From contig CAYZGK010000004.1 of the NCBI GenBank assembly GCA_964478025.1, forward strand, positions 8,273-72,272: a stretch of 64,000 nt of DNA, in the 5' to 3' direction. A program made the position numbers and the translations under genes. A model generated the notes under the pieces. The model ran no database searches. It saw only the letters and a program-made list of their open reading frames with translations, and was not told the origin of the DNA. The DNA comes from an uncultured Christensenella sp. (GTDB taxonomy: Bacteria > Bacillota > Clostridia > Christensenellales > UBA3700). Position 1 is the first letter of the stretch, and each line of letters begins with the position of its first letter. Positions 6,798 through 56,704 of the stretch are shown piece after piece.

Positions 6798-8033
6798 ATG
6801 AAAAAAACTTTAATTTTAGTTGTACTACTATTAGCTTGTATAAGCATGGGTATGGTAGGATGTACATCTCAAAACAATACACAACAAGTTTTTGAATTAC
6901 AAGACCAAGATGAAATAACTGAAGTAGTAAATACTCCAGTGCTAGATGAAATTGTAGAAGAAAAATCTACAGAAGAAAATGTTGTTGTGATTGAAAAGGA
7001 TGATAGTCCTGCTCAAGATGTAAAAGAAGAATCTAATACTTCAATTACTGAAGTTACAAATTCAAATGATTTATCTTTAGAATCTGTTGGTATGGCAGGT
7101 ATATCTGTTGAACTTACTGACGTTGCTTCAGGTAAAGAAATTACAGGTTATTCTAACGTAACAAAAGAAGATGTAGTTTTAGCTAAAGGAGAGAATACAA
7201 TTGTAGGAATTGGAGCAGGTGCATTTAAAAATCTTACAACTATTAAATCAATTGATTTATCTAGCCTTACAGACTTAACTTACATAAGCGAGAAAGCATT
7301 TTCAGGTTGTACAAATTTAACAACTATAAAATTGCCATCATCTGTTACTTCTTTTGGCAAGTTAGCTTTCTACCAAACAAAGTGGCTTGATGTCCAAAGA
7401 GCCAACTCAGATCAAAGATTAGTTATAGTTAATAATGTTTTAGTTGATGGAAAAACAGCAGAAGGTGATATTACTATTCCAGATACTGTAACAAGTATTG
7501 CACCAAGTGCTTTTTCATATAACTATAAAATGACAAGTCTTACAACAGGTGCTTCATCGCCTCTTGTAGATATCCCAGAACAAGCATTTTGTAATTGTGT
7601 AGCTTTAAAAACTGTTACAATCCCTACAATAAAAACTATTGGCGAAAGAGCATTTATGTCATGTAAAAAATTAACAACAATTTCTATGTCTAATTTAAAT
7701 ACTATAGGAAATATGTCTTTTGCTAATTGTGTAGCACTAACTGCATTAGACTTTGTTGCTAGTCAAAACTTTAAGTCAATAGATTATGGTGCTTTCATGG
7801 GATGTAGTAAGATTGAAACTGTAAATTTTGGTAACTCAATTGAAACTATAGGAATAGCTGCTTTTTATCAATGTGAATCACTAAATAAAATAGAGTTCTC
7901 TAGTTCTAATTTAGCTTCAATTGGAGATGGGGCTTTCCAAGCTTGTAGTAAGCTTGCAACAGTGACTGGAATTAATAGTGCTTCTATTGGTATCGGAGCA
8001 TTCTTTGGAACTAAATACTCAAGTGGTTCTTAA
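6798..8033 (+). CDS. BspA-type (LRR_5) leucine-rich-repeat lipoprotein
   Basis: Lipobox MVGC at residue 22; repeated IGxxAFxxCxxLxxI units. Confidence 0.9.
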   Translation: MKKTLILVVLLLACISMGMVGCTSQNNTQQVFELQDQDEITEVVNTPVLDEIVEEKSTEENVVVIEKDDSPAQDVKEESNTSITEVTNSNDLSLESVGMAGISVELTDVASGKEITGYSNVTKEDVVLAKGENTIVGIGAGAFKNLTTIKSIDLSSLTDLTYISEKAFSGCTNLTTIKLPSSVTSFGKLAFYQTKWLDVQRANSDQRLVIVNNVLVDGKTAEGDITIPDTVTSIAPSAFSYNYKMTSLTTGASSPLVDIPEQAFCNCVALKTVTIPTIKTIGERAFMSCKKLTTISMSNLNTIGNMSFANCVALTALDFVASQNFKSIDYGAFMGCSKIETVNFGNSIETIGIAAFYQCESLNKIEFSSSNLASIGDGAFQACSKLATVTGINSASIGIGAFFGTKYSSGS

Positions 8034-8047
8034 TTAATAGAGTTATA

Positions 8048-8077
8048 GGAAGGAGGCTTTAGGGCTTCCTTCTTTTT
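8048..8077 (+). terminator. Intrinsic terminator
   Basis: GGAAGGAGGC/GCTTCCTTCT stem followed by T tract. Confidence 0.75.
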
Positions 8078-8119
8078 GTAAAGTATATAAAACATTTCTT
8101 ATAAAAAGGAAGGTAAAAT

Positions 8120-9763
8120 ATGAAAGATTTTTTAGAAAAAGTTAAAGTATTTTTTGCAAATCTTGGTGTAAAAATTTCTGAATTTTGCAAAAAACTTGGC
8201 AAAAGAAATTTAATTATTATTTCAGCTGTAATAGTAGTTGTTCTAATTGCTATTATTGTTCCATGTGCAGTAGTTGGAGCAAATAAAAGTAGTGGAAATA
8301 GTAATAATGGTGGAAACACTACAATAAGTGGTGGAGAAACTGGTGGTTCAACTGGTGGAGAAACTGGAGGATCAACTGGCGGAGAAACTGGAGGATCAAC
8401 TGGCGGCGGTGAAACAGGTGGCTATGATAATACAGCTGCTAAAGATTTTACTCTTGTAGCACTTGCTGATGGTACATATAAAGTAACTGGTTATACGGGA
8501 TCTTCTACTGCAATAGTATTCCCATCAAAATATAACGGAAAAGATGTTACAGAGATAGATGAAGCAATATTTAAGGATAAAACAACAATAAAGAGTGTTG
8601 TTATACCAAATAGTATAAAAATTATTGATAGTGAAGCATTTGCAAACTGTACAGGTCTTGAGAGTGTTACTTTAGGTACAGGATTAAAAGAAATTGGTTG
8701 GTATGCGTTTGATAATTGTTCTTCACTTACAAGTATTACAATTCCTGGTAATGTTGACACAATTGGTTTTTATTCATTCTCTAATTGTACAGGATTAACT
8801 ACTGTTAATATTGAAAATGGAGTAAGGTGTATAGAAAAACAGGCATTTTTGAGTTGTACAAGTCTTACAAATTTAACTCTTCCAAATACTTTAACAAACA
8901 TAGAAAGTGGGGCATTTTTATCAACACCAGTGTATACTAACAATTGCATTACAGAAAATGGATTAAAATATTTTGGCTATAATGGTAATTCACATTATTT
9001 ACTTGTGGAGGCAGAAAGTGACTCTCAAACTACTTATAGTATAAATGCTGATACAAAAATTATTGGTGGTTGGGCTTTTTATGGTTGTGAACAAATGACA
9101 TCTATAACCATTCCAAGTGGCGTAACGGCTATTGGAAGTGGAGCATTTGATGGTTGTTCTGCTTTAACAAGTATAATTATTCCAAACGGCGTTACAACTA
9201 TTGAAGATGATTTATTTGATGAATGTTCAGCTTTAGCTAGTGTAACTATTCCAAGTAGTGTAACAAAAATTGGAGATTCTGCTTTTTATCATTCTGGTAT
9301 AGAAAGTATTGTTATTCCTGATAGTGTAACAAAAATTGGAGATGAAGCCTTTGATGGTTGTACTAAACTTTCAAGTGTTTCAATTGGAACAGGTGTAACA
9401 AGTATTGGTAAACGTGCATTTAGGCTTACTGTTCTTACAAGTATTACAATTCCTGGTAATGTACTTAAAATTGACCAGTTTGCTTTTTTGAGTTGTGAAA
9501 ACCTTAGTAGTGTTACACTTGAAGATGGTATAACAGAAATTGAAAGAGAAGTTTTTAAAGGCTGTACGGCTTTAACTACTATAACCATTCCAACAAGTGT
9601 GAATTATATGGGCGATTATGTATTTTGTAGTTGTAAATCAGATTTAGTAATTAATATTAAAAAATCTGAATCCTCTACTTCAAATTGGGAAACTACATGG
9701 AGTGGTATCGATGTAGATCAACCACGTGATACACAATACATTCACTGGGATTATAGTGACTAA
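8120..9763 (+). CDS. BspA-type (LRR_5) surface protein with N-terminal membrane anchor and Gly/Thr linker
   Basis: N-terminal TM helix, GGETGGST repeats, many TSITIPxSVTxIGxxAFxxC repeats. Confidence 0.92.
   Translation: MKDFLEKVKVFFANLGVKISEFCKKLGKRNLIIISAVIVVVLIAIIVPCAVVGANKSSGNSNNGGNTTISGGETGGSTGGETGGSTGGETGGSTGGGETGGYDNTAAKDFTLVALADGTYKVTGYTGSSTAIVFPSKYNGKDVTEIDEAIFKDKTTIKSVVIPNSIKIIDSEAFANCTGLESVTLGTGLKEIGWYAFDNCSSLTSITIPGNVDTIGFYSFSNCTGLTTVNIENGVRCIEKQAFLSCTSLTNLTLPNTLTNIESGAFLSTPVYTNNCITENGLKYFGYNGNSHYLLVEAESDSQTTYSINADTKIIGGWAFYGCEQMTSITIPSGVTAIGSGAFDGCSALTSIIIPNGVTTIEDDLFDECSALASVTIPSSVTKIGDSAFYHSGIESIVIPDSVTKIGDEAFDGCTKLSSVSIGTGVTSIGKRAFRLTVLTSITIPGNVLKIDQFAFLSCENLSSVTLEDGITEIEREVFKGCTALTTITIPTSVNYMGDYVFCSCKSDLVINIKKSESSTSNWETTWSGIDVDQPRDTQYIHWDYSD
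8330..8422 (+). repeat. 24-nt tandem coding repeat (GGETGGST x3 plus partial)
   Basis: GGTGGAGAAACTGG(T/A)GG(T/A)TCAACT units at 8330, 8354, 8378. Confidence 0.9.
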
Positions 9764-9815
9764 AGTTGTTGAGAATTAACTTAAAGAATAGAGTATTTTA
9801 AGTTTATAAGAAAAC

Positions 9816-9848
9816 AAAAAACCATGAGCGAAATGTTCATGGTTTTTT
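9816..9848 (+). terminator. Intrinsic terminator
   Basis: AAAAACCATGAGC-GAAAT-GTTCATGGTTTTT. Confidence 0.8.
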
Positions 9849-9887
9849 AGTTGTATAAAGAAAAAATTATATTATATAATTTTGAAT

Positions 9888-10814
9888 ATGAAAAATAATA
9901 TAAAAGGACCTATATTGCTATTTATTACCGCAATTATTTGGGGTGTTGCCTTTGTTTCTCAAAGGTCTGCTGCCTCATATAATTTAGGTGCTTTTACATT
10001 TAATGGAATTAGATATTTATTAGGAGCTATTGTTTTAATACCTTTTGTAATTTTTATAAGGACAAGAAAGAATGGTAGTTATAGTATGCTTAGTGTAGAT
10101 GAAAAGAAAATCTATAATAAAAATACAATAATAGGTGGTATAGTTTGTGGATTGTTTTTGTGTATAGCATCAAGTTTTCAACAATTTGGAGTTGAAGGAT
10201 TATCATCTGGGAAAACAGGATTTATTACTGCCTTATATATTATTTTTGTGCCATTACTTGGATTATGTTTTAAAAAGAAATGTTCTATATTTGTCTTTAT
10301 TGCAGTGCCTGTTGCTCTTGTTGGAATGTATTTTTTATGCATGGTAGGGGAAAGTTTTGCAATAACAAAGTATGAAGTTTATGTTTTTTTATGTGCAATA
10401 TTCTTTACTTTTCAAATAAGTGCTGTAGATTATTTTGCAATTAAGGTTGATTGTGTTGCTATGGCTTGTATTGAGTTTACAGTAACTGGCTTGATAAGTC
10501 TTATAGCAATGTTTATATTTGAAAAACCAGAAATAGAAACTATAAAATCTTGTTATGTTCAAATCTTGTATTCAGGAATAATGTCTTCTGGAGTTGCATA
10601 TACATTACAAGTTGTAGGTCAAAAACATACAAATCCAACGCTCGCTTCGCTTATTATGAGTCTTGAGTCTACTATTTCAGCAATAGCAGGTTGGATTATA
10701 TTAAAAGAAAATTTATCTTGGCAACAATGGCTTGGATGTGGAATTATGTTTATAGCAATAATAATTGCACAAATACCAATGAAAAATAAAAAAACAGGGG
10801 AATTAAATCAATGA
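9888..10814 (+). CDS. DMT/EamA-family transporter
   Basis: IIWGVAFVSQR, FNGIRY, GKTGFITALYIIFVP, SGVAYTLQVVGQK, LIMSLES; ATG 9888 preferred over TTG 9882. Confidence 0.92.
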   Translation: MKNNIKGPILLFITAIIWGVAFVSQRSAASYNLGAFTFNGIRYLLGAIVLIPFVIFIRTRKNGSYSMLSVDEKKIYNKNTIIGGIVCGLFLCIASSFQQFGVEGLSSGKTGFITALYIIFVPLLGLCFKKKCSIFVFIAVPVALVGMYFLCMVGESFAITKYEVYVFLCAIFFTFQISAVDYFAIKVDCVAMACIEFTVTGLISLIAMFIFEKPEIETIKSCYVQILYSGIMSSGVAYTLQVVGQKHTNPTLASLIMSLESTISAIAGWIILKENLSWQQWLGCGIMFIAIIIAQIPMKNKKTGELNQ

Positions 10815-11410
10815 AAGCCGCAATAGTACTAAATTCACAAGCACCAATTGCAGATATTAAAGAAGATGTAATTATCGCAGCAGATAGGGGATATATTCTT
10901 GCATTAGAGCAAAATAAAACTCCTACAATAGTTATTGGAGATTTTGATTCATCAAATGCTCCAGAAAATTTAAAGATAATAAAACTAAATGTGGAAAAAG
11001 ATAATACAGATGGTGAAGCTTGTATTGATTGGGCCAAAGATAACGGCTTTAATGAAATTACTATATATGGAATAACATCTGGAAGAATTGATCATCAATT
11101 AGCTAATATTTCTCTTTTAGCCTATGGTGATAAACTAGGATTAAGAGTAGTGGGAGAGGATAGGGATTGTAGAATCTTATATTTAAAGAAAGGTAAGTAT
11201 TCTTTTGACATGAATATTAATCAAGAGTTTTCTATTTTTCCATTTGATGGTACTGCCATTATAGATAACGGGATAGGGTGTAAATATCCAATAAATAATC
11301 TTAAATTACTATCTTATTTAGGCGGTAGAGCTATTTCCAATAAAGCATTAAATAATAAAGTATCTTTTGATGTAATAGATGGTAGCGTTTTATTAATTAT
11401 TAATAAATAA
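10811..11410 (+). CDS. thiN: Thiamine pyrophosphokinase
   Basis: IAADRG, IGDFDS, EKDNTDGE, GRIDHQLANI motifs. Confidence 0.92.
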   Translation: MKAAIVLNSQAPIADIKEDVIIAADRGYILALEQNKTPTIVIGDFDSSNAPENLKIIKLNVEKDNTDGEACIDWAKDNGFNEITIYGITSGRIDHQLANISLLAYGDKLGLRVVGEDRDCRILYLKKGKYSFDMNINQEFSIFPFDGTAIIDNGIGCKYPINNLKLLSYLGGRAISNKALNNKVSFDVIDGSVLLIINK

Positions 11411-11431: not shown

Positions 11432-11459
11432 CACAACCGGACAATTTTGTCCGGTTGTG
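11432..11459. promoter_or_regulatory. Palindrome copy 1 (candidate XRE operator)
   Basis: CACAACCGGACAA-TT-TTGTCCGGTTGTG, perfect 13-bp arms. Confidence 0.7.
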
Positions 11460-11543
11460 TTCTTCTTTATGCCCTTCTTAAAGAGTGTCTTATATATCAA
11501 AATGTAGGTATACAAAAATCTCACTTTATAAGGAGGGAATATT

Positions 11544-12047
11544 ATGAAAAAGATAGGAGCAGGTGGAAAGCTTCAGAATTATGATTCAAAAGGTAGATAT
11601 TGTAAAAATAACTATTTTGATTTTACGCCACCTGCATTTACTAAAAAAGAAATAAGAAGGCGTAAAGAAGAAAAACGTCGGCAAGAACTTTATGAAAAAG
11701 CAAAATGCAGTGATGATGCTTATATATTTGATGTATATTTAGCTTTAGAAAAAGCCATTCCTGGTGTTGTTATTGGTGTAAATGAAAAATTGTTAGATGA
11801 AAATATAGGTAAACCTCGTGAATTTGACATAATTACTAAAAAATGCATAATAGAAGTAAAGTCTAAAGCTGTTAAATGTGAAAGTCAATTACTAGCTCAA
11901 CTTAGATATACTAATTTACATAAGATAAAACATTTCTTGTATTCTCCAACTATCACTAGAGTGGCAAAATATGAATATGAGAAAAATGGAATTGATGTAA
12001 GTAAAACATTAGATGAATTAGTAAGAAAAGTAAAGGAGATGCAATAA
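11544..12047 (+). CDS. Putative PD-(D/E)xK nuclease toxin, allele T1
   Basis: REFDIITKKCIIEVKS (D95, E104, K106), downstream Q helix; RBS AAGGAGG; stop overlaps next ATG (TAATG). Confidence 0.7.
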   Translation: MKKIGAGGKLQNYDSKGRYCKNNYFDFTPPAFTKKEIRRRKEEKRRQELYEKAKCSDDAYIFDVYLALEKAIPGVVIGVNEKLLDENIGKPREFDIITKKCIIEVKSKAVKCESQLLAQLRYTNLHKIKHFLYSPTITRVAKYEYEKNGIDVSKTLDELVRKVKEMQ

Positions 12048-12418
12048 TGAGAGATATATTTTTTGTTACAAAAGAACCAATGGTTTTAGAAGATTGCTTT
12101 GAAGCTATAAAGAAAGTTTATAAATCTGCCGATACTGGTATTGGTGTTATATGTTTAGATAAGTCAGCTCCAAAATCAGCATATATGTGGTTTCCATCAT
12201 TAAAAAAATACGAACCAGGTGAGGTTTGGGAAGAGGATGATTTGAAAGATGTGCCTGATGATTATAATTATTTTACAACATTAAATTATCATCTAACGTG
12301 TGTGACTAAAAATTTTGTTAGGGCTTTACAGCCTTTGTATCCAGATATGTTAATACAAGATGATGATTCTAAGGTATATACTATCGACGAATATTTAAAT
12401 TGTAAGTTTGATCATTAA
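12047..12418 (+). CDS. Putative cognate immunity protein, allele I1
   Basis: Small acidic protein translationally coupled to the nuclease; paralog of four other copies. Confidence 0.65.
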   Translation: MRDIFFVTKEPMVLEDCFEAIKKVYKSADTGIGVICLDKSAPKSAYMWFPSLKKYEPGEVWEEDDLKDVPDDYNYFTTLNYHLTCVTKNFVRALQPLYPDMLIQDDDSKVYTIDEYLNCKFDH

Positions 12419-12464
12419 ATAATGATTAATAAATGAAATAATAAATTACTAGAGGAATTATTTT

Positions 12465-12490
12465 ACAACCGGACAATCTTGTCCGGTTGT
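12465..12490. promoter_or_regulatory. Palindrome copy 2
   Basis: ACAACCGGACAA-TC-TTGTCCGGTTGT. Confidence 0.7.
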
Positions 12491-12575
12491 GTTCTTGTTT
12501 ATGCCCTTCTTAAAGAGTGTCTTATATATCAAAATGTAGGTATACAAAAATCTCACTTTATAAGGAGGGAATATT

Positions 12576-13082
12576 ATGAAAAAGATAGGAGCAGGTGGAA
12601 AGCTTCAGAATTATGATTCAAAAGGTAGATATTGTAAAAATAACTATTTTGATTTTACGCCACCTGCATTTACTAAAAAAGAAATAAGAAGACGTAAAGA
12701 AGAAAAACGTCGGCAAGAACTTTATGAAAAAGCAAAAAATAGTGATGATGCTTATGTGTTTGATGTGTACTTAACTTTAGAAAAAGCAATGCCGGGTGTT
12801 GTTATAGGCGTAAATGAATATAGATTAGATGAAAATATAGGTAAACCCCGTGAATTTGACATAATCACTAAAAAATGCATAATAGAAGTAAAGTCAGAAA
12901 AGGCTGCAAAGAAAGAAAAACAATTATTAGCACAATTAAAATATGCCAATTCGCATAAGTTAAAACATTTTTTATATTCGCCTACTATTACTAGAGCAAG
13001 GAAGTATGAATATGAGAAAAATGGAATTAATGTAAGTAAAACATTAGATGAGTTAATTAGAAAACTAAAGGAGATGCAATAA
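12576..13082 (+). CDS. Putative PD-(D/E)xK nuclease toxin, allele T2
   Basis: Same N-terminal 54 aa and catalytic motif as T1; C-terminal half diverged. Confidence 0.7.
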   Translation: MKKIGAGGKLQNYDSKGRYCKNNYFDFTPPAFTKKEIRRRKEEKRRQELYEKAKNSDDAYVFDVYLTLEKAMPGVVIGVNEYRLDENIGKPREFDIITKKCIIEVKSEKAAKKEKQLLAQLKYANSHKLKHFLYSPTITRARKYEYEKNGINVSKTLDELIRKLKEMQ

Positions 13083-13453
13083 TGAGAGATATATTTTTTG
13101 TTACAAAAGAACCAATGGTTTTAGAAGATTGCTTTGAAGCTATAAAGAAAGTTTATAAATCTGCCGATACGGGTATTGGTGTTATATGTTTAGATAAGTC
13201 AGCTCCGAAATCAGCATATATGTGGTTTCCATCATTAAAAAAATATGACCCAGATGAGTTTTGGGAAGAGGATGAATTAGAAAATATACCAGATGATTAT
13301 AATTATTTTACAAATTTAGAATATCATTTATCTTGTGTGTCTAAAAATTTTGTTAAGGCATTACAGCCTCTATATCCAGATATGCTTATACAAGATGATG
13401 ATTATGTAGTATATACCATCGAAGAATATTTAAATTGTAAGTTTGATCATTAA
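13082..13453 (+). CDS. Putative immunity protein, allele I2
   Basis: First 55 aa identical to I1, rest diverged; TAATG coupling. Confidence 0.65.
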   Translation: MRDIFFVTKEPMVLEDCFEAIKKVYKSADTGIGVICLDKSAPKSAYMWFPSLKKYDPDEFWEEDELENIPDDYNYFTNLEYHLSCVSKNFVKALQPLYPDMLIQDDDYVVYTIEEYLNCKFDH

Positions 13454-13499
13454 ATAATGATTAATAAATGAAATAATAAATTACTAGAGGAATTATTTT

Positions 13500-13525
13500 A
13501 CAACCGGACAATCTTGTCCGGTTGT
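13500..13525. promoter_or_regulatory. Palindrome copy 3
   Basis: Identical to copy 2. Confidence 0.7.
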
Positions 13526-13610
13526 GTTCTTGTTTATGCCCTTCTTAAAGAGTGTCTTATATATCAAAATGTAGGTATACAAAAATCTCACTTTATAAGG
13601 AGGGAATATT

Positions 13611-14117
13611 ATGAAAAAGATAGGAGCAGGTGGAAAGCTTCAGAATTATGATTCAAAAGGTAGATATTGTAAAAATAACTATTTTGATTTTACGCCACCT
13701 GCATTTACTAAAAAAGAAATAAGAAGACGTAAAGAAGAAAAACGTCGGCAAGAACTTTATGAAAAAGCAAAAAATAGTGATGATGCTTATGTATTTGATG
13801 TGTATTTAGCTTTAGAAAAAGCAATGCCTGGTGTGGTTATAGGTGTAAATGAATATTTATACGATGAAAATATTAAAGATAAAAGGGAGTTTGACATAAT
13901 TACTAAAAAATGCATAATAGAAGTAAAGTCAGGCGATGTAGTAAAGAGGGAGAAACAATTTTTGGCACAGCTAAAGTATACAAAGTTTCATGGGGTACAA
14001 TATTTTATTTTTGCTCCGGATTTAAATAGAATTAGAACTTATCAATATACCAAAGATGGATTTAACATAAGTAAAACGTTAGATGAATTAATAAGAAAAG
14101 TAAAGGAGATACAATAA
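13611..14117 (+). CDS. Putative PD-(D/E)xK nuclease toxin, allele T3
   Basis: Same N-terminus and motif; C-terminal half identical to T4. Confidence 0.7.
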   Translation: MKKIGAGGKLQNYDSKGRYCKNNYFDFTPPAFTKKEIRRRKEEKRRQELYEKAKNSDDAYVFDVYLALEKAMPGVVIGVNEYLYDENIKDKREFDIITKKCIIEVKSGDVVKREKQFLAQLKYTKFHGVQYFIFAPDLNRIRTYQYTKDGFNISKTLDELIRKVKEIQ

Positions 14118-14485
14118 TGAGAGATATATTTTTTGTTACAAAAGAACCAATGATTTTAGATGATTGTTATATAGAAATAAAGAAAGTTTATAAAAAAAGC
14201 GAAAAAAGCAATTGTAAAATTAGTTTATATGGAGCTCCAAAATCAGCATATATGTGGTTTCCTTCATTAAAAAAATATGACCCAAGTGAATATTGGGGTG
14301 AAGATGAATTGGAAAATATACCTGATGATTATAATTATTTTACAAATCTTGAATATCATCTAACGTGTGTATCTAAAAATTTTGTTAGGGCTTTACAACC
14401 ATTGTATCCAGATATGCTAATACAAGATGATTATCTAAAAGTATATACAATTGAAGAATATTTAAGTTGTAAGTTTGACCATTAG
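14117..14485 (+). CDS. Putative immunity protein, allele I3
   Basis: Paralog of I1/I2; TAATG coupling. Confidence 0.65.
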   Translation: MRDIFFVTKEPMILDDCYIEIKKVYKKSEKSNCKISLYGAPKSAYMWFPSLKKYDPSEYWGEDELENIPDDYNYFTNLEYHLTCVSKNFVRALQPLYPDMLIQDDYLKVYTIEEYLSCKFDH

Positions 14486-14528
14486 AACTATGAATAATGA
14501 ATAAAATAAAGACTTTCTAAAGAAAAAA

Positions 14529-15176
14529 CTACTTTTTTTGATTTTTTATTTTATTTTTAAATTTTGTTTTATATTCATTTTCGTATTCTTTAGGATCCTC
14601 TCCATTGTAAACTAATAGTTTATTAAGTCTTTCTATTGATGGAAATAGGGAGTCTTCATAATTTCTGAAATTTTGAATTAATTTATCAAAATCTTTTATG
14701 CTAATTGTTGGATCTTCGTCTCTTATATCTACACAATAATTTTTATTTTCAAAATTATCATTAAGTCTATTTAAGTATATTTGTGTTTCCTTATCTAAAC
14801 ACTCAAAAATATATTCTTCACCATTGGGTAAATTTGGATTTTTGATTTTTTTAGGAATAATAACAAGTGAAAACATAAGTCTATTTAGTCTTTTAAATGA
14901 TGCTTCCCAGGTATATAGGTTGTCATCAGATGTCTCTTTATTAAGAATTAGATAATCAAGTGAAACATTATATAAATCAGCTAGAGCAACTAGAAAATCG
15001 ATTTTTGGGGAACATTTTCCTTGTTCATATCGTCTAATAGTTCTTTCGTCAATTATTAAATAATGTTTATTTTGTAATTTTTCTATAACATTATCTATTG
15101 TATATTGTTTTTCTTTTCTTAATATTCTAAGTCGTTTACCTACATTTTTTCTAAAGTTTTCATCTGAAATAAACAT
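14529..15176 (-). CDS. XRE/Cro-C1 HTH transcriptional regulator with C-terminal extension
   Basis: VGKRLRILRKEKQYT...TIRRYEQGKCSPKIDFLVALADLYNVSLDYL; RBS AGGTAGGTG. Confidence 0.92.
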   Translation of the reverse strand: MFISDENFRKNVGKRLRILRKEKQYTIDNVIEKLQNKHYLIIDERTIRRYEQGKCSPKIDFLVALADLYNVSLDYLILNKETSDDNLYTWEASFKRLNRLMFSLVIIPKKIKNPNLPNGEEYIFECLDKETQIYLNRLNDNFENKNYCVDIRDEDPTISIKDFDKLIQNFRNYEDSLFPSIERLNKLLVYNGEDPKEYENEYKTKFKNKIKNQKK

Positions 15177-15197
15177 TTTTCACCTACCTTTATATTG

Positions 15198-15246
15198 ATT
15201 TTACCAAATCGGACATTTTTGTCCAGTAGTGTATGAGAAAATGTCC
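15198..15246 (-). promoter_or_regulatory. Candidate XRE promoter overlapped by degenerate palindrome
   Basis: Minus strand TGGACA(15225-15220)-16 nt-TAAAAT(15203-15198) with extended TG; GGACA-TTTT-TGTCC at 15211-15224; extra TGTCC 22 bp away. Confidence 0.65.
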
Positions 15247-15311
15247 TTCTTTTGGTTCATAACGAAGAACATAATATTTATGACAAAAATTTATTTTAAG
15301 GAGAAAAGGCT

Positions 15312-15818
15312 ATGAAAAAGATAGGAGCAGGTGGAAAACTTCAGAATTATGATTCAAAAGGTAGATACTGTAAAAATAACTATTTTGATTTTACGCCACC
15401 TGCATTTACTAAAAAAGAAATAAGAAGACGTAAAGAATAAAAGCGACGACAAGAACTTTATGAAAAAGCAGAAAAAAGTGATGATGCTTATGTGTTTGAT
15501 GTATATTTAGCTTTAGAAAAAGCTATGCCCGGTGTAGTTATAGGAGTAAATGAGTATTTGTTTGATGCAAACATAGGAGCAAATAGGGAGTTTGACATAA
15601 TTACTAAAAAATGCATAATAGAAGTAAAGTCAGGCGATGTAGTAAAGAGGGAGAAACAATTTTTGGCACAGCTAAAGTATACAAAGTTTCATGGGGTACA
15701 ATATTTTATTTTTGCTCCGGATTTAAATAGAATTAGAACTTATCAATATACCAAAGATGGATTTAACATAAGTAAAACGTTAGATGAATTAATAAGAAAA
15801 GTAAAGGAGATACAATAA
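15312..15818 (+). pseudogene. Nuclease toxin allele T4, nonsense mutation
   Basis: ATG 15312 homologous to T1-T3; GAA>TAA at 15438-15440; rest of frame intact. Confidence 0.88.
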
Positions 15819-16185
15819 TGAGAGATATATTTTTTGTTACAAAAGAACCAATGAATATAGATGATTGCTATAAGGAAATAAGTAAAGTTTATAAAAAGGC
15901 AAAAAAATATGATGATGAAATTAGTATTTTAGGTGCTCCAAAGTCTGCTTTTATGTGGTTTCCATCATTAAAAAATATGATCCTAGTGAATATTGGGGTG
16001 AGGATCAGTTAAAAGATATACCAAAAGATTATAATTATTTTACAACCTTAAATTATCATTTAACGTGTGTAACTAAAAACTTTGTTAGAGCTTTACAAAC
16101 ATTGTATCCAGATATGCTGATACAAGATGCTTATTTGAAAGTATATAAAATTGAAGAATATTTAAATTGTAAGTTTGACCACTAA
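15818..16185 (+). pseudogene. Immunity allele I4, -1 frameshift in A-tract
   Basis: A6 at 15970-15975 where the other four paralogs have A7; both halves match the family. Confidence 0.88.
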
Positions 16186-16209
16186 TAATGTGAGTAAAGG
16201 AAAAATAAA

Positions 16210-16578
16210 ATGAGAGATATATTTTTTGTTACAAAAGAACCAATGAATGTAGAGGATTGCTATAAGGAAATAAGTAAAATTTATAAAAAAGCAGAAAAAC
16301 TAAATGAACAAATATCTTTAGATAATTATCCTAAATCGGCCCTTATGTGGTTTCCATCATTAAAAAAATATGATCCAAGTGAATATTGGGGTGAAGATGA
16401 ATTAGAAAACATACCGGAAGATTATAATTATTTTACAAATCTTGAGTATCATTTAACTTGTGTATCTAAAAATTTTGTTAGGGCATTACAACCATTGTAT
16501 CCAGATATGCTAATACAAGATGCTTATTTGAAAGTATATACAATTGAAGAATATTTAAATTGTAAATTTGACCATTAA
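16210..16578 (+). CDS. Orphan immunity allele I5
   Basis: Full-length paralog with no upstream nuclease gene. Confidence 0.7.
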   Translation: MRDIFFVTKEPMNVEDCYKEISKIYKKAEKLNEQISLDNYPKSALMWFPSLKKYDPSEYWGEDELENIPEDYNYFTNLEYHLTCVSKNFVRALQPLYPDMLIQDAYLKVYTIEEYLNCKFDH

Positions 16579-40419: not shown

Positions 40420-41592
40420 TTAGTCTTCATCTTCATTTGCTAATACTTCTTTTTTATTAGCAAATGAAGGATTTAATGAATTTACAAAAGCTTTAGATGA
40501 AAGTAAAATTGCGCCTAAAACCATATTAAATATCATATCTACAAATACAAATGAGTTATATACTGCAGAATAGGCAAATACATTCATGTTTTCTGGACAA
40601 TATGCAGAGAATGCAAATATGCCAGAAATTAAATGAGCTATATATCTAAAGATAGCAACACAAAAAGCACCTAAAACAAATTTAACTTGAGGTAATTTTT
40701 CTAAGGCTTTTAAGTTGCTAAATATTCCAGTAAATGCAACCATTGCAAAAGCAATAGGGTAGTCTAATAAAAATTGTGCTGGATGAATTATGAATGGATC
40801 TTGTATTGCTTGTAATATTCCATAAATAAATCCTATAGCTAAACCTTTTTTAGGGCCATGCATATAAGCATAAAGCATTATTGGAAGTAATGATACTAAA
40901 GTTATTGAACCTCCTTGAGGAAGATTAAATATCTTTACGTAAGATAGGGCAAAACTTGTTGCAATACAAATGCCTGCTCTTGCAATAGATTTTGTATCAA
41001 ATATTAGATTTCCTTTTTTATCTATAACTAAAACGGCAGCTAAAAGGGCAATAAATAAAACTATTGCTCCGATAATAAGTGCTGCTTGATTTACAGAGGC
41101 TGTATTAGAGTTATAATAGCCATCACTTTCGATGTGGTTTGTATAATACAAAGCTACCATCGTTATGGTAAATATTATAGATGTGATTATAATGGTTGCT
41201 GCTATATAATAAAATGTCTTTATAAGTTCAGGTTTTTTCTTATTTATAATTGCGTTTGCTATAAAGCAAAGAACAATAACACCAAGTGTAATAAATATTG
41301 GCATAAATACATAAATTAAAACATCGCTACTGATCCAATTTTCATCAAGATATTCACTATTATAGTGTTTGTATAAGTCCATAATTAATAGAGTAATTTC
41401 TATTAAAATTGCATATACAACAAATGATATAGTTGCGTACTTTGCGTATTTTTTTAGCATTGTAAAGTTTAGTGCGTAGATTACTACGCCTACAATTACA
41501 AGGGTTGTTAAGATTCCGATTGTTAACCATGTAGCAATAGGTTGGAACGTGTCAACAGCATAAGTTTTGGCACACATAATTAAATTAAACAT
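40420..41592 (-). CDS. thiT: ThiT-family ECF S-component with extra N-terminal multi-TM domain
   Basis: C-terminal half LPQGGSIT...GPKKG...HPAQFLLDYPIAF...SGIFAF is ThiT-like; about 190 extra N-terminal aa. Confidence 0.85.
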   Translation of the reverse strand: MFNLIMCAKTYAVDTFQPIATWLTIGILTTLVIVGVVIYALNFTMLKKYAKYATISFVVYAILIEITLLIMDLYKHYNSEYLDENWISSDVLIYVFMPIFITLGVIVLCFIANAIINKKKPELIKTFYYIAATIIITSIIFTITMVALYYTNHIESDGYYNSNTASVNQAALIIGAIVLFIALLAAVLVIDKKGNLIFDTKSIARAGICIATSFALSYVKIFNLPQGGSITLVSLLPIMLYAYMHGPKKGLAIGFIYGILQAIQDPFIIHPAQFLLDYPIAFAMVAFTGIFSNLKALEKLPQVKFVLGAFCVAIFRYIAHLISGIFAFSAYCPENMNVFAYSAVYNSFVFVDMIFNMVLGAILLSSKAFVNSLNPSFANKKEVLANEDED

Positions 41593-55401: not shown

Positions 55402-55480
55402 ATGAAAGGACTTGAAAAAATATTTTTTTTCGGCTATTATAACATTGAATATTAAAATAGTCGAAAATTTAGAGGTAGAT

Positions 55481-56704
55481 ATGTACATAAAAAGACATGC
55501 TGAAAAAACTACAAAAGAGCTTGCGCAAATGTTTGGTGCTGTATTAATTGCAGGGCCTAGACAGGTGGGTAAAACTACTATGCTTGAAAAAATAACAAAG
55601 GGAGTTAATTATATTTCATTAGATGACCCTGTTATGAGGGCAAGTGCAAAGGTAGAAACGGGCACGTTCTTTAAAGATAATCCGCCTCCTGTTTTTGTTG
55701 ATGAGATACAAAAAGTTCCAGAACTTTTTGAACAAATAAAACTTATTATTGATAAATCACATAAAAAAGGTCAATTTTTTATGTGTGGTTCACAACAATT
55801 TCAAATGATGAAAGGTGTTAGTGAATCTCTTGCTGGAAGGATTGGATTGTGTACATTACTTGGGCTTTCTCTGCGTGAAGTTCAAGGAATTTTGTGCGAT
55901 TTACCATTTTTACCATCTAATTTCTATTTAAGTAAAAGAAGAGAAGATTTTAAAGATATATCTTATAAAGATATATGGGGTATTATACATAGAGGCTTAA
56001 TGCCAGAATTATATACTAACAAAAAAAATAGATGGGAATTATTTTATTCTGGCTATGTTGGAACGTATATAGAAAGAGATGTAAAGGAATTTACAGAGAT
56101 AGGAAACACAATTAAGTTTACAAACTTTATGGTAGCAGCAGCTGCTATGACAGGACAACTTTTAAACTTAACATCACTTGCTCGTGATGTAGGGGTAAGT
56201 GTTCCTACAATAGAAAGATGGCTTTCAATCTTAGTTGCCTCTAATATAGTTTATCTTTTACCACCTTATTCTAATAATGTCTTAAAGCGTGCAGTTAAAA
56301 CTCCAAAATTGTATTTTTTGGATACAGGACTTGTTGCATATCTTACAAAGTGGAGTTCTCCTGAAGTTTTAAAAAATGGCGCAATGGCAGGGCATATATT
56401 TGAAACATTTGTAGTATCTGAAATAATAAAAAGTTATTACAATGCCGGAATAATTAATCCGCCAATATACTTTTATAGAGATAAAGATATGAATGAAATA
56501 GATATTCTGATTGAGGAAAATGGTGTGTTATATCCACTAGAAATTAAAAAACATGCTGATCCAAAAAAATCCGATGCTAAAGCATTTAACATTATAGATA
56601 ACATACAAAATGTGAAAAGAGGACAAGGTGGTATTATTTGCCTTTATGATAAGCTCGTGACTTTAGATGAGGGTGTTAAAGTAATTCCTGTAAATTATTT
56701 ATAA
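55481..56704 (+). CDS. AAA_14 ATPase with DUF4143 domain
   Basis: GPRQVGKTT, FVDEIQK, SLAGR, KTPKLYFLDTG, EIDILIE..EIK. Confidence 0.9.
   Translation: MYIKRHAEKTTKELAQMFGAVLIAGPRQVGKTTMLEKITKGVNYISLDDPVMRASAKVETGTFFKDNPPPVFVDEIQKVPELFEQIKLIIDKSHKKGQFFMCGSQQFQMMKGVSESLAGRIGLCTLLGLSLREVQGILCDLPFLPSNFYLSKRREDFKDISYKDIWGIIHRGLMPELYTNKKNRWELFYSGYVGTYIERDVKEFTEIGNTIKFTNFMVAAAAMTGQLLNLTSLARDVGVSVPTIERWLSILVASNIVYLLPPYSNNVLKRAVKTPKLYFLDTGLVAYLTKWSSPEVLKNGAMAGHIFETFVVSEIIKSYYNAGIINPPIYFYRDKDMNEIDILIEENGVLYPLEIKKHADPKKSDAKAFNIIDNIQNVKRGQGGIICLYDKLVTLDEGVKVIPVNYL

Follow-up and report, generated by a model that had tools for sequence, protein, structure and literature searches.

A recombining array of candidate nuclease toxin and inhibitor genes with a dedicated Xre-type regulator in an uncultured Christensenella

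Polymorphic toxins of the Rhs, contact-dependent inhibition (CDI), LXG/type VII secretion system (T7SS) and PT-HINT types carry their toxin domain at the C-terminus, in proteins that also possess trafficking, repeat or pre-toxin domains. An immunity gene lies directly downstream, and populations contain alternative alleles, often as silent C-terminal cassettes, together with orphan immunity genes and variation between strains. A different arrangement is found in three-component toxin-antitoxin (TA) systems of type II, for example omega-epsilon-zeta and paaR-paaA-parE, and in toxin-first pairs such as higBA and hicAB. It is known that TA systems and polymorphic toxins have toxin domains in common (Zhang et al. 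2012, PMC3482391). Here we describe a locus that has features of both, located at positions 11432-16578 of a 64,000-nt stretch of contig CAYZGK010000004.1 (assembly GCA_964478025.1) from an uncultured Christensenella sp. We refer to this whole stretch as the window and number all positions on it. The locus appears to be an amplified array of a cassette that comprises a candidate nuclease toxin (T), a candidate inhibitor (I) and a regulator (R).

Like the polymorphic toxins, and especially those with Tox-REase-6 and Tox-REase-7 domains, T ends in a homologous nuclease domain and is followed directly by an immunity-like gene, and the locus shows alternative alleles, orphan immunity genes and strain variation. 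It differs in three respects. T possesses no trafficking, repeat or pre-toxin domain and has instead a private N-terminal module of 55 amino acids (aa); its alleles are complete genes with promoter, operator and ribosome-binding site, rather than silent C-terminal cassettes; and a dedicated Xre regulator belongs to the T-I unit. Since a trafficking domain is absent, T-I lies outside the architecture that defines the classical polymorphic toxins. An earlier inspection of the letters alone, which we call the sequence-only reading, had drawn this likeness; it holds for the homologous toxin domain, the coupled acidic partner and the orphans, but not for the missing trafficking domain or the dedicated regulator. 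With the three-component TA systems and the toxin-first pairs the locus shares a toxin that would be cytoplasmic, an inhibitor that itself has no DNA-binding domain, a distinct transcription factor that is predicted to bind a palindromic operator, and a compact cassette that is scattered among chromosomal genes. In contrast to those systems, whose toxin fold and families are unrelated to T-I, the regulator here is divergently transcribed rather than first in the operon and I is predicted to be well folded and globular. To our knowledge, tandem arrays with orphan inhibitors are not known among them.

We consider it probable that the core of the locus is a repressed nuclease toxin with its cognate inhibitor. 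T would be a cytoplasmic, basic protein of ~168 aa whose nuclease domain cuts nucleic acid, to the harm of the cell in which this occurs. I, translated from the mRNA of T, would bind the variable surface around the active site of its cognate T and block it. R would be an Xre-type repressor that binds the sequence GACAA-N4-TTGTC ~85 nt upstream of every T start; because this palindrome precedes every T, a single R gene could control all the units. In this species the T-I pair would have been duplicated together with its operator and promoter, and recombination, whether at the homogenised 5' end, within the invariant catalytic core or at either conserved end of I, would have shuffled old allelic segments, deleted T genes and left I genes behind. 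What the array is for is less certain. Tentatively, we favor a role in conflict between closely related strains, in which an extra T allele would serve as a weapon against strains that lack the matching I, and an extra I, orphans included, would serve as a shield. The most conjectural steps of all are export and uptake, since T would have to reach neighboring cells by a route that is not recognisable from its sequence.

The list of open reading frames (ORFs), a repeat finder and the sequence itself agree on three intact units of ~1.03 kb, a decayed fourth unit and a partnerless fifth I gene. Each intact unit consists of an operator hairpin, a promoter region, a T gene encoding 167-168 aa and an I gene encoding 122-123 aa, and the repeat finder places the unit starts 1032-1035 bp apart. 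Over their whole length the units are 83-91% identical, a likeness far above chance. In three pairwise comparisons the identity is 95-100% over the first ~240 aligned nt, which include the leader and approximately the first 130 nt of T, and in some downstream windows of 60 nt it drops to 50-75%. Unit 1, like the other two transcribed from the plus strand, begins with the palindrome CACAACCGGACAAttTTGTCCGGTTGTG (11432-11459), which is the probable operator of the Xre regulator and is also terminator-like, with a stem of 12-13 bp and a T-rich tail. It continues with T1 (11544-12047; 167 aa, basic, isoelectric point (pI) 9.5), composed of the N-terminal module and a PD-(D/E)xK domain with a variable C-half that we call type A, and with I1 (12047-12418; 123 aa, acidic, pI 4.6). 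A terminator scan and a comparison of palindromes locate the corresponding operator or terminator-like elements of units 2 and 3 at 12464-12491 and 13499-13526. Unit 2 encodes the candidate toxin T2 (12576-13082; 168 aa, C-half type B) and I2 (13082-13453; 123 aa, acidic, pI 4.3), and unit 3 encodes T3, identified as a candidate from the ORF list and alignment (13611-14117; 168 aa, C-half type C), and I3 (14117-14485; 122 aa). In each unit, T1-I1 included, the stop codon of T overlaps the start of I by 1 nt in the sequence TAATG. The ribosome-binding site AAGGAGGG is present in every intact unit, and every intact allele has its own expression signals.

In the distal part of the array the pattern is less regular. 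The regulator gene (14529-15176, minus strand) lies inside the array, divergent from T4, and encodes a 215-aa Xre-family helix-turn-helix (HTH) protein with an uncharacterised C-terminal domain of ~130 aa. The idea that this domain might be an I-like sensor was rejected (hhalign probability 0.2%). In the spacer between the regulator and T4, at what would be the ancestral position of the operator, there is a copy, GGACAtttttGTCC, weakened to arms of 5 bp (15211-15224, no strand assigned). T4 (15312-15818, plus strand) is a pseudogene with an in-frame TAA at 15438-15440. Its residues 107-168 are identical at the protein level to those of T3, which points to recent recombination. I4 (15818-16185, plus strand) is also a pseudogene, with a -1 frameshift in an A-run at 15970-15975 that has six A residues compared with seven in the window's other I genes. 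A junction of 24 nt (16186-16209, plus strand) that keeps a remnant of the T 3' end (GTAAAGGA...) then leads to I5 (16210-16578, plus strand), an intact orphan for which no cognate T was seen and which closes the array in each of the three conspecific strains. No ORF of 100 aa or more within the array encodes anything other than T, I or the regulator. As a whole this layout agrees with the sequence-only reading, which had described three repeats with a decayed copy and an orphan partner, near-identical leaders and ORF starts, an overlap of each nuclease stop with the ATG of its partner, and a leader, ribosome-binding site and N-terminus kept by every allele. It had rightly noted a leader in each unit, but missed that the hairpin within it is a conserved palindrome, and the minus-strand Xre gene was overlooked as well.

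Several lines of evidence bear on the nature of T. The core E-F-D-x8-E-V-K, previously described as invariant, is present in all four T copies. In an alignment of 23 family sequences the residues N80, D85, R92, E93, D95, K99, C101, E104, V105, K106 and Q116 are invariant, and in a set of 40 sequences that includes polymorphic toxins D95 remains invariant and K106 nearly so. An AlphaFold (AF2) model of T2 based on 23 homologues (predicted local distance difference test (pLDDT) 85.7) has the strand-helix order of the restriction endonuclease (REase) fold. Its best fold neighbors in the PDB, found with Foldseek, are NucS/EndoMS, Can2, VC1899 and AF1548, all PD-(D/E)xK nucleases, with probabilities of 0.93-0.99, yet with E-values of only ~0.03. 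A library of viral structures returned endonucleases (E 2e-3), DUF559 proteins and restriction enzymes. T2 alone matches the Pfam model Tox-REase-7 (PF15649) with 14.4 bits and E 0.047, below the cut-off of 25, and further sub-threshold matches are to UPF0102/YraN and, in a PADLOC scan, to a Cas4 model (E 6e-4), with which T has the fold in common. No significant family match to T, I or the distant partners was obtained with Pfam, NCBIfam or PADLOC, and a search of PDB sequences with the T and I profiles gave chance matches alone (a mitoribosomal protein, nanobodies). It is a well-supported prediction that T is a PD-(D/E)xK nuclease with an intact active site, in which residues ~56-168 form the predicted nuclease domain (D95, E104-V-K106, Q116). 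The earlier assignment to the PD-(D/E)xK class is consistent with the Foldseek matches and with the invariance of the motif residues.

T is basic (pI 9.5-9.7), and its residues 1-55 alone have a net charge of +9.5. In the model this N-terminal module consists of a short beta-hairpin that carries a Gly-rich motif, KxGAGGxxQNYDxxGRY, and, after it, a long helix with many charged residues; the helix, rich in E, K and R, resembles a rigid spacer. Neither a domain of Pfam or NCBIfam nor a hydrophobic signal segment was found in these residues, and the few matches to the module alone are short fragments. By eye, the motif (11544-11710, and likewise in T2-T4), which reads QNYDxxGRY/F here and YDPxTGRF in relatives, resembles a YD/Rhs repeat. 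The RHS_repeat hidden Markov model (HMM) matches none of the short family members, and we treat the resemblance as a lead only.

T has few relatives. A word-indexed search found 22 among 5.8 billion proteins, and T family loci were found at 4 places in 185,579 species genomes, all of them in uncultured Clostridia-type or unclassified metagenome-assembled genomes, so far mainly from uncultured Clostridia-type gut bacteria. An exhaustive profile search returned 318 proteins at E<1e-3, which fall into two groups. The first, with ~90 representatives at E<1e-10, consists mostly of short proteins (~165-180 aa) or their fragments, and wherever the N-terminus is present both the module and the nuclease domain are kept. 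In the second, more distant group the nuclease domain alone (profile positions ~53-168) is found at the extreme C-terminus of other proteins. These include Rhs-core proteins (P0140, P0160, P0183), fragments that start with the end of a PT-HINT domain (P0134, P0174), one protein with the Pfam T7SS_signal domain (P0180) and another that is linked to a PrsW membrane protease (P0189), and the T nuclease-domain profile reaches E-values down to ~1e-9 against such C-terminal toxin domains. The partner domains listed for Tox-REase-6 and Tox-REase-7 by Zhang et al. 2012 include the same Rhs, PT-HINT, T7SS-signal and PrsW types (PMC3482391). This position in the architecture of known weapons identifies the nuclease domain of T as a genuine weapon-type toxin domain. 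It is not filed under any named toxin family; among 40 diverse T relatives none reaches the threshold of any Pfam toxin model, and Tox-REase-7 matches 1 of the 40 even at E<1. A tblastn search of 72,556 plasmids and 50,697 phages with T gave zero matches even at E=10, and there is thus no evidence of a phage or plasmid origin.

These data also bear on the suggestion that T is not a toxin at all. It might be a regulated DNA-processing nuclease of the restriction, repair or recombination type, with I as a modulator or DNA mimic and the array as a chance duplication. The closest solved folds are indeed repair or CRISPR-ancillary nucleases, the weak HMM matches to UPF0102/YraN and Cas4 point in the same direction, and a regulator with a palindrome recalls the controller proteins of restriction systems. 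However, the same domain terminates toxins of the Rhs, PT-HINT and T7SS-signal architectures, the extreme sparsity of the family fits poorly with such a function, and the strict coupling of T to I, the co-variation of their alleles and the orphan I genes would be unexpected for a housekeeping nuclease. We regard this suggestion as highly improbable.

The partner I has 12 close relatives, or 22 when a profile is used and distant partners are included. In another genome the partner of a T that is 45% identical to ours is 25% identical to I and still recognisably homologous. The immunity gene of the T7SS-signal relative was compared as a possible homologue and found to be unrelated. I is acidic (pI 4.3-4.9), as opposed to the basic T. 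The model of I2 (pLDDT 92.5, predicted TM score 0.87) is a compact alpha/beta fold, with weak matches to known structures. The best of these is SirA, a small protein-binding inhibitor that is unrelated, and among them is CdiI of Burkholderia pseudomallei 1026b (4g6v; TM 0.49-0.56, E 0.34). The toxin partner of that CdiI is a nuclease of the PD-(D/E)xK fold; the CdiA/CdiI system differs from the present one in that no CdiA or CdiB is encoded at the array. As modelled, I looks like a stable, globular protein of the immunity type, and its compactness lends no support to lability.

Across the window and two conspecific assemblies the allele type of I tracks the C-half type of T. The I alleles that accompany type A C-halves carry EVWEEDDLKD and DDDSKVY, and the allele found with type B is marked by DEFWEEDELEN / DDDYVVY. 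The I3 type goes with type C and the I4 (delta) type with type C'. Only the decayed unit 4, in which T acquired the C-half of T3, departs from this pattern.

A separate observation concerns the A7 run of the I genes (TTAAAAAAATAT). The -1 frameshift at this run in the window's I4 has an independent counterpart in the single I gene of the more distant locus L001 (GCA_963592135.1; site ~10670-10690), and the same shortened ORF of 76 aa recurs in other samples (P0033, P0034). The run may be a hotspot for slippage or an on/off switch for the inhibitor.

Each intact unit is headed by a perfect palindrome of 26-28 nt, which a terminator scan also flags. Its core, GACAA-N4-TTGTC, is found 75-87 nt upstream of the T start in the window and at the distant loci L005, L014, L019 (as CTAGACAAGTTTGTCTAG) and L028. 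The regulator of the window is 42% identical to that of the cassette in L005, where T is 45% identical. That the palindrome keeps its place when the proteins are less than 50% identical, and does so between divergent genes, where a terminator would make no sense, argues that it is best read as an operator. GACAA-N4-TTGTC is therefore, as judged from this comparison, the probable operator of the Xre regulator. In the window it has been copied with every unit and lengthened to arms of 12-13 bp with a T-rich tail, and it may in addition terminate transcription of the preceding unit, which would give it a dual role. An Rfam search of the unit leader gave sub-threshold chance matches only.

It was of interest to compare the window with its relatives at the same locus. 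Two conspecific assemblies, L002 and L009, derive from independent metagenomes, and their flanks are ~99% identical to the window. The window has three T genes and one pseudogene, L002 has four T genes and L009 has two, so that the copy number indeed differs between strains when compared as the sequence-only reading had suggested. In L002 the order is T-I, T-I, an orphan I of the I3 type, the regulator, T-I, T-I and an orphan I of the I5 type. In L009 it is T-I, T-I and an orphan I of the I5 type, with no regulator. The units of this strain (8070-10369) may be unrepressed, the regulator may be elsewhere, or the middle of the array may have collapsed in assembly. The more distant L001, with a T that is 80% identical, has a single unit, in which I is frameshifted, and possesses no regulator. 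L002 possesses no T3, yet it has kept the I3-type gene, which is 98% identical to I3 of the window and stands there as an orphan. The same 24-nt sequence, with its remnant of the T 3' end, is found at 4 of 4 I-I junctions in the three strains. Such identical junctions imply that deletion of T with retention of I did take place and was then spread by recombination. The second T of L009 is a chimera joined within the invariant catalytic core. The earlier claim of allele arrays and orphan partners is thus supported by I5 and by the I3-type orphan of L002, as well as by the differences in copy number.

These assemblies are apparently based on short reads (record names like k141, Spades), and the order and exact number of the units may err in detail. 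It might be argued that the array itself is an artefact, in which units that are identical over ~300 nt at their 5' ends were merged or wrongly joined. The locus is known from metagenome contigs, the identical segments are longer than typical k-mers, and several related contigs end inside or just past a T-I unit. Against this, the arrays lie within contigs of 105-219 kb that reach unique sequence on either side, overall divergence among the units is 9-17%, and unit-specific T-I combinations recur across samples. Since the same locus is present with other unit counts in two independent assemblies, the array is not a one-off product of assembly. An artefact is therefore extremely improbable, and we do not doubt that this site holds several distinct T-I alleles.

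The substitution patterns provide information about the age of the alleles. We calculated the ratio of nonsynonymous to synonymous change (dN/dS) by the Nei-Gojobori method, pooled over pairs, for separate segments. It is below 1 in every segment of T and I, with a maximum of 0.66. In T the values are 0.06-0.12 for the conserved segments and 0.40, 0.24 and 0.51 for residues 79-92, 108-135 and 136-155. In I they are 0.04-0.14 for the conserved segments and 0.66, 0.20 and 0.27 for residues 13-42, 56-72 and 101-112. The array is therefore not shown to be diversifying, and we make no claim of diversifying selection, because dN/dS exceeds 1 in no segment. The patches of nonsynonymous change that had been noticed earlier are real, but synonymous divergence (pS) is high in them too. 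It is 0.58 in T codons 108-135 compared with 0.14 in codons 1-55. High pS in the variable patches suggests that the alleles are old and have been shuffled by recombination, and low pS at the uniform 5' ends suggests gene conversion and not constraint alone. Between strains, orthologous T and I genes show 23 amino-acid changes per 44 nt changes, compared with 12 per 119 for the flanking genes, although these pairs are not independent. At the level of sequence comparison this excess indicates markedly relaxed or adaptive evolution and is no proof of positive selection.

Taken at the level of the array, the facts best fit a system of weapons and shields that acts between strains. Each genome encodes several specificities, an orphan I is present in all three strains, and T has been lost while I was kept. 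The order T then I, the stable-looking, globular I and the occurrence of the toxin domain in Rhs, T7SS and HINT weapons all favor this interpretation. A number of observations nonetheless weigh against it, among them the dN/dS values just described, and taken at the level of the family the facts best fit an intracellular three-component TA or abortive-defence module. In such a module R would repress the operon and I would neutralise T within the producer, and loss or titration of I or R, as might happen under stress or when a phage infects, would set T free within that cell. On this view the array comprises paralogues that are insulated from one another and perhaps guard against antitoxin mimics encoded by phages, and an orphan I gene is simply what remained once its T had been lost. 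We examined six other contexts of the T family: L005/L014, L010, L019/L021, L025, L028-30 and L027. In all of these except L027, a 2-kb contig on which no regulator is seen, T and I form with R a lone, self-contained cassette. The regulators (194-216 aa) are divergent from T, with an Xre HTH in 4 of 5 and no Pfam hit in the fifth, and T and I are separated by a 2-nt gap or overlap by 4 nt. The operator is conserved, as described above. One cassette lies between the yicC/gmk operon and a pyrimidine operon, and another adjoins genes for RelB, an AbiEi-like protein, a transposase and AAA_14/DUF4143. No secretion genes were found in the examined flanks of the six contexts. To have its own repressor next to it is more characteristic of a three-component TA or defence system, and the architecture R, T, I fits a three-component TA module equally well. 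I has no DNA-binding domain and a separate regulator provides this function, as it does in systems of the omega-epsilon-zeta type. L001, in which an apparently intact T lies beside a frameshifted I with the regulator absent from the locus, is hard to reconcile with a potent toxin, unless this copy of T is decaying or not expressed.

The N-terminus of T adds to this side of the argument. T was found to contain neither a signal peptide nor a trafficking domain, be it LXG/WXG, Rhs, PAAR, MuF or another, in agreement with the sequence-only reading, which had recognised no standard delivery domain. Among the 150 best profile hits the N-terminal module occurs on no other toxin domain; a general secretion tag would be expected on other toxins, and this very basic module, private to one nuclease, could be an arm that binds nucleic acid. 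The precedent for toxin domains that occur in both TA and polymorphic toxin systems, cited above, is consistent with an intracellular role. The TA interpretation does not, however, explain the several specificities within one genome, the intact orphan I5 in all three strains or the retention of the I3-type gene after loss of T3. Moreover, I resembles a stable, globular immunity protein rather than a labile antitoxin, and neither T nor I has a significant match in PADLOC or NCBIfam. We consider an intracellular module to be a real possibility, if a somewhat doubtful one, and we retain conflict between strains as our tentative interpretation.

Two side observations may be recorded concerning these cassettes. 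In the most distant one, with a T that is 31% identical (L010 2135-2988, L013 1229-2082), T-I is followed by a small LRR_5 protein and then a DUF7674 protein, with a Fic-domain protein as well in L010; another toxin/immunity-like pair may thus be present in the islet. An ATPase gene of the AAA_14/DUF4143 family is present in the window at 55412-56704, amid housekeeping genes, and the family is also found near T cassettes or related toxins in L022, L023 and L025; its association with T-type genes is probably coincidental.

Secreted nuclease weapons of other kinds offer partial parallels. In the nuclease bacteriocins (E-type colicins, S-type pyocins) a repressed operon encodes a nuclease and then a tightly coupled, small, acidic immunity protein, diversification is located at the interface of the two, and multiple or orphan immunity genes are present in populations. 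These bacteriocins differ from T in their large receptor-binding and translocation domains, compared with 168 aa in all for T, in their HNH or other folds, in place of PD-(D/E)xK, and usually in the possession of a lysis gene. No lysis or holin gene was seen at the array, a further point against conflict between strains. The ABP systems (AbpT/AbpP/AbpI) are described as antibacterial toxins of Gram-positive bacteria that consist of a cationic segment and a polymorphic toxin domain, with a cytoplasmic immunity protein, and that are secreted by the Sec route and require a co-secreted serine protease (PMC13460014). The +9.5 segment of T resembles this cationic segment, but T has no signal peptide and the array encodes no protease.

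A possible route for T is suggested by the neighborhood. To the right of the array, and abutting it in all conspecific strains, is a codirectional cluster of 21.6 kb (16765-38371) that is, as judged from its predicted proteins, a type IV secretion system (T4SS) like those of Mycoplasma integrative and conjugative elements (ICEs). Its genes encode an MBG-domain lipoprotein, a CD1115-type VirD4, a surface protein of 2473 aa, an Mbov_0395-type pilin-like protein, a 250-aa lipoprotein, an MMCAP2_0566/Mbov_0396-type membrane protein, an Mbov_0397-type VirB4 (588 bits vs a cut-off of 590) and a protein of 1662 aa with no family hit. Neither of the two very large proteins (2473 and 1662 aa) matches any family. 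The VirB6-like membrane protein (29285-30688) ends in a long, asparagine-rich tail of low complexity, which is unusual for a component of a bacterial T4SS. The island contains no recognisable relaxase or integrase, its composition shows no break relative to the flanks, and the ends of the 27-kb block have no direct or inverted repeats of at least 10 nt in common that might be att sites. From these features the island does not look currently mobile, and the cluster may be a domesticated or non-canonical transfer system.

One might suppose that T-I is cargo of this conjugation-type island, with T-I as an addiction module and the orphan I genes as anti-addiction against T alleles on related elements. 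The constant adjacency of array and cluster and the matches of the T4SS proteins to the Mycoplasma-ICE families Mbov_0395, MMCAP2_0566/Mbov_0396, Mbov_0397 (VirB4) and CD1115-type VirD4 are consistent with this. Yet T-I genes are not present upstream of T4SS clusters in other species (VirD4 59-60% identical; three metagenome loci with usable flanks, in which the gene order is kept), a finding that also counts against conflict between strains by way of this machine. The T4SS is adjacent to the family in this species only and is absent from the examined flanks of the six other contexts, neither integrase, relaxase nor att repeats were found, the composition is like that of the flanks, and the tblastn search of plasmids and phages was empty. 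That T-I is island cargo is, in our judgment, very unlikely.

The same comparison bears on delivery. Known precedents are the X-Tfe effectors (XVIPCD) of Xanthomonas and Stenotrophomonas, bactericidal substrates of a Gram-negative VirB/D4 T4SS with a C-terminal recognition domain of ~120 aa (PMC6759196, PMC10933484). They resemble T-I in that toxin-immunity pairs lie near a T4SS with a VirD4 coupling protein. T, in contrast, has no recognition domain, and the T4SS here is of the Mycoplasma-ICE type, with relatives that lack T-I. The fact that related clusters lack T-I suggests that the neighborhood of array and T4SS is specific to this lineage, and we have down-weighted the T4SS as the delivery machine of T for that reason. 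A more general version is that T is a cytoplasmic nuclease passed from cell to cell without a classical secretion domain, either through the adjacent T4SS or a mating junction or with the N-terminal module as a new device for loading or entry; array and orphans would then mediate kin discrimination among mating or contacting gut cells. We think this unlikely.

To the left of the array are genes for an EamA transporter and thiamin pyrophosphokinase (10811-11410). The 27-kb block of array and T4SS lies between the latter and, a few genes beyond the block, a thiamine transporter (40420-41592), a protein of 390 aa in which a ThiT/YuaJ domain is preceded by an N-terminal extension of ~200 residues. 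Insertion of the block may have driven apart two thiamine genes that had been closer neighbors. Further to the left, tandem genes (6798-8033 and 8120-9763) encode BspA-type surface proteins with leucine-rich repeats. The second of these has a low-complexity linker of the GGETGGSTGG type, with internal repeats of 66-69 nt, and its length is 547 aa in the window and 585-593 aa in L002, L003 and L009.

As far as known systems are concerned, PADLOC-DB 2.0 gave only the weak Cas4-model hit for T, none for I and generic HTH hits for R, and no description of the T-I family was found in the literature. By these searches T-I matches no known defence or TA family. We therefore describe an unannotated family of regulator, toxin and inhibitor, with a nuclease toxin that has a conserved, private N-terminal module, a new alpha/beta inhibitor and a dedicated Xre regulator with a recognisable operator; it is unusual for such a cassette to have been amplified into a recombining array that bears an operator in each unit and includes orphan inhibitors. 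The family straddles TA modules and polymorphic toxins, in that it combines a domain shared with weapons and a TA-like cassette with a population pattern like that of weapons, namely allele arrays and the hoarding of immunity genes. The conserved operator and the cognate T-I specificities make it a compact and testable system of regulation and specificity. If T is exported, it would represent a new route of delivery in Gram-positive or Mollicutes-like bacteria, and if the T4SS is that route, no earlier case of toxin delivery by a T4SS of the Gram-positive/Mollicutes type would precede it. The site at which T acts would reveal either a transition from TA module to weapon or the way in which arrays of orphan inhibitors can arise without secretion.

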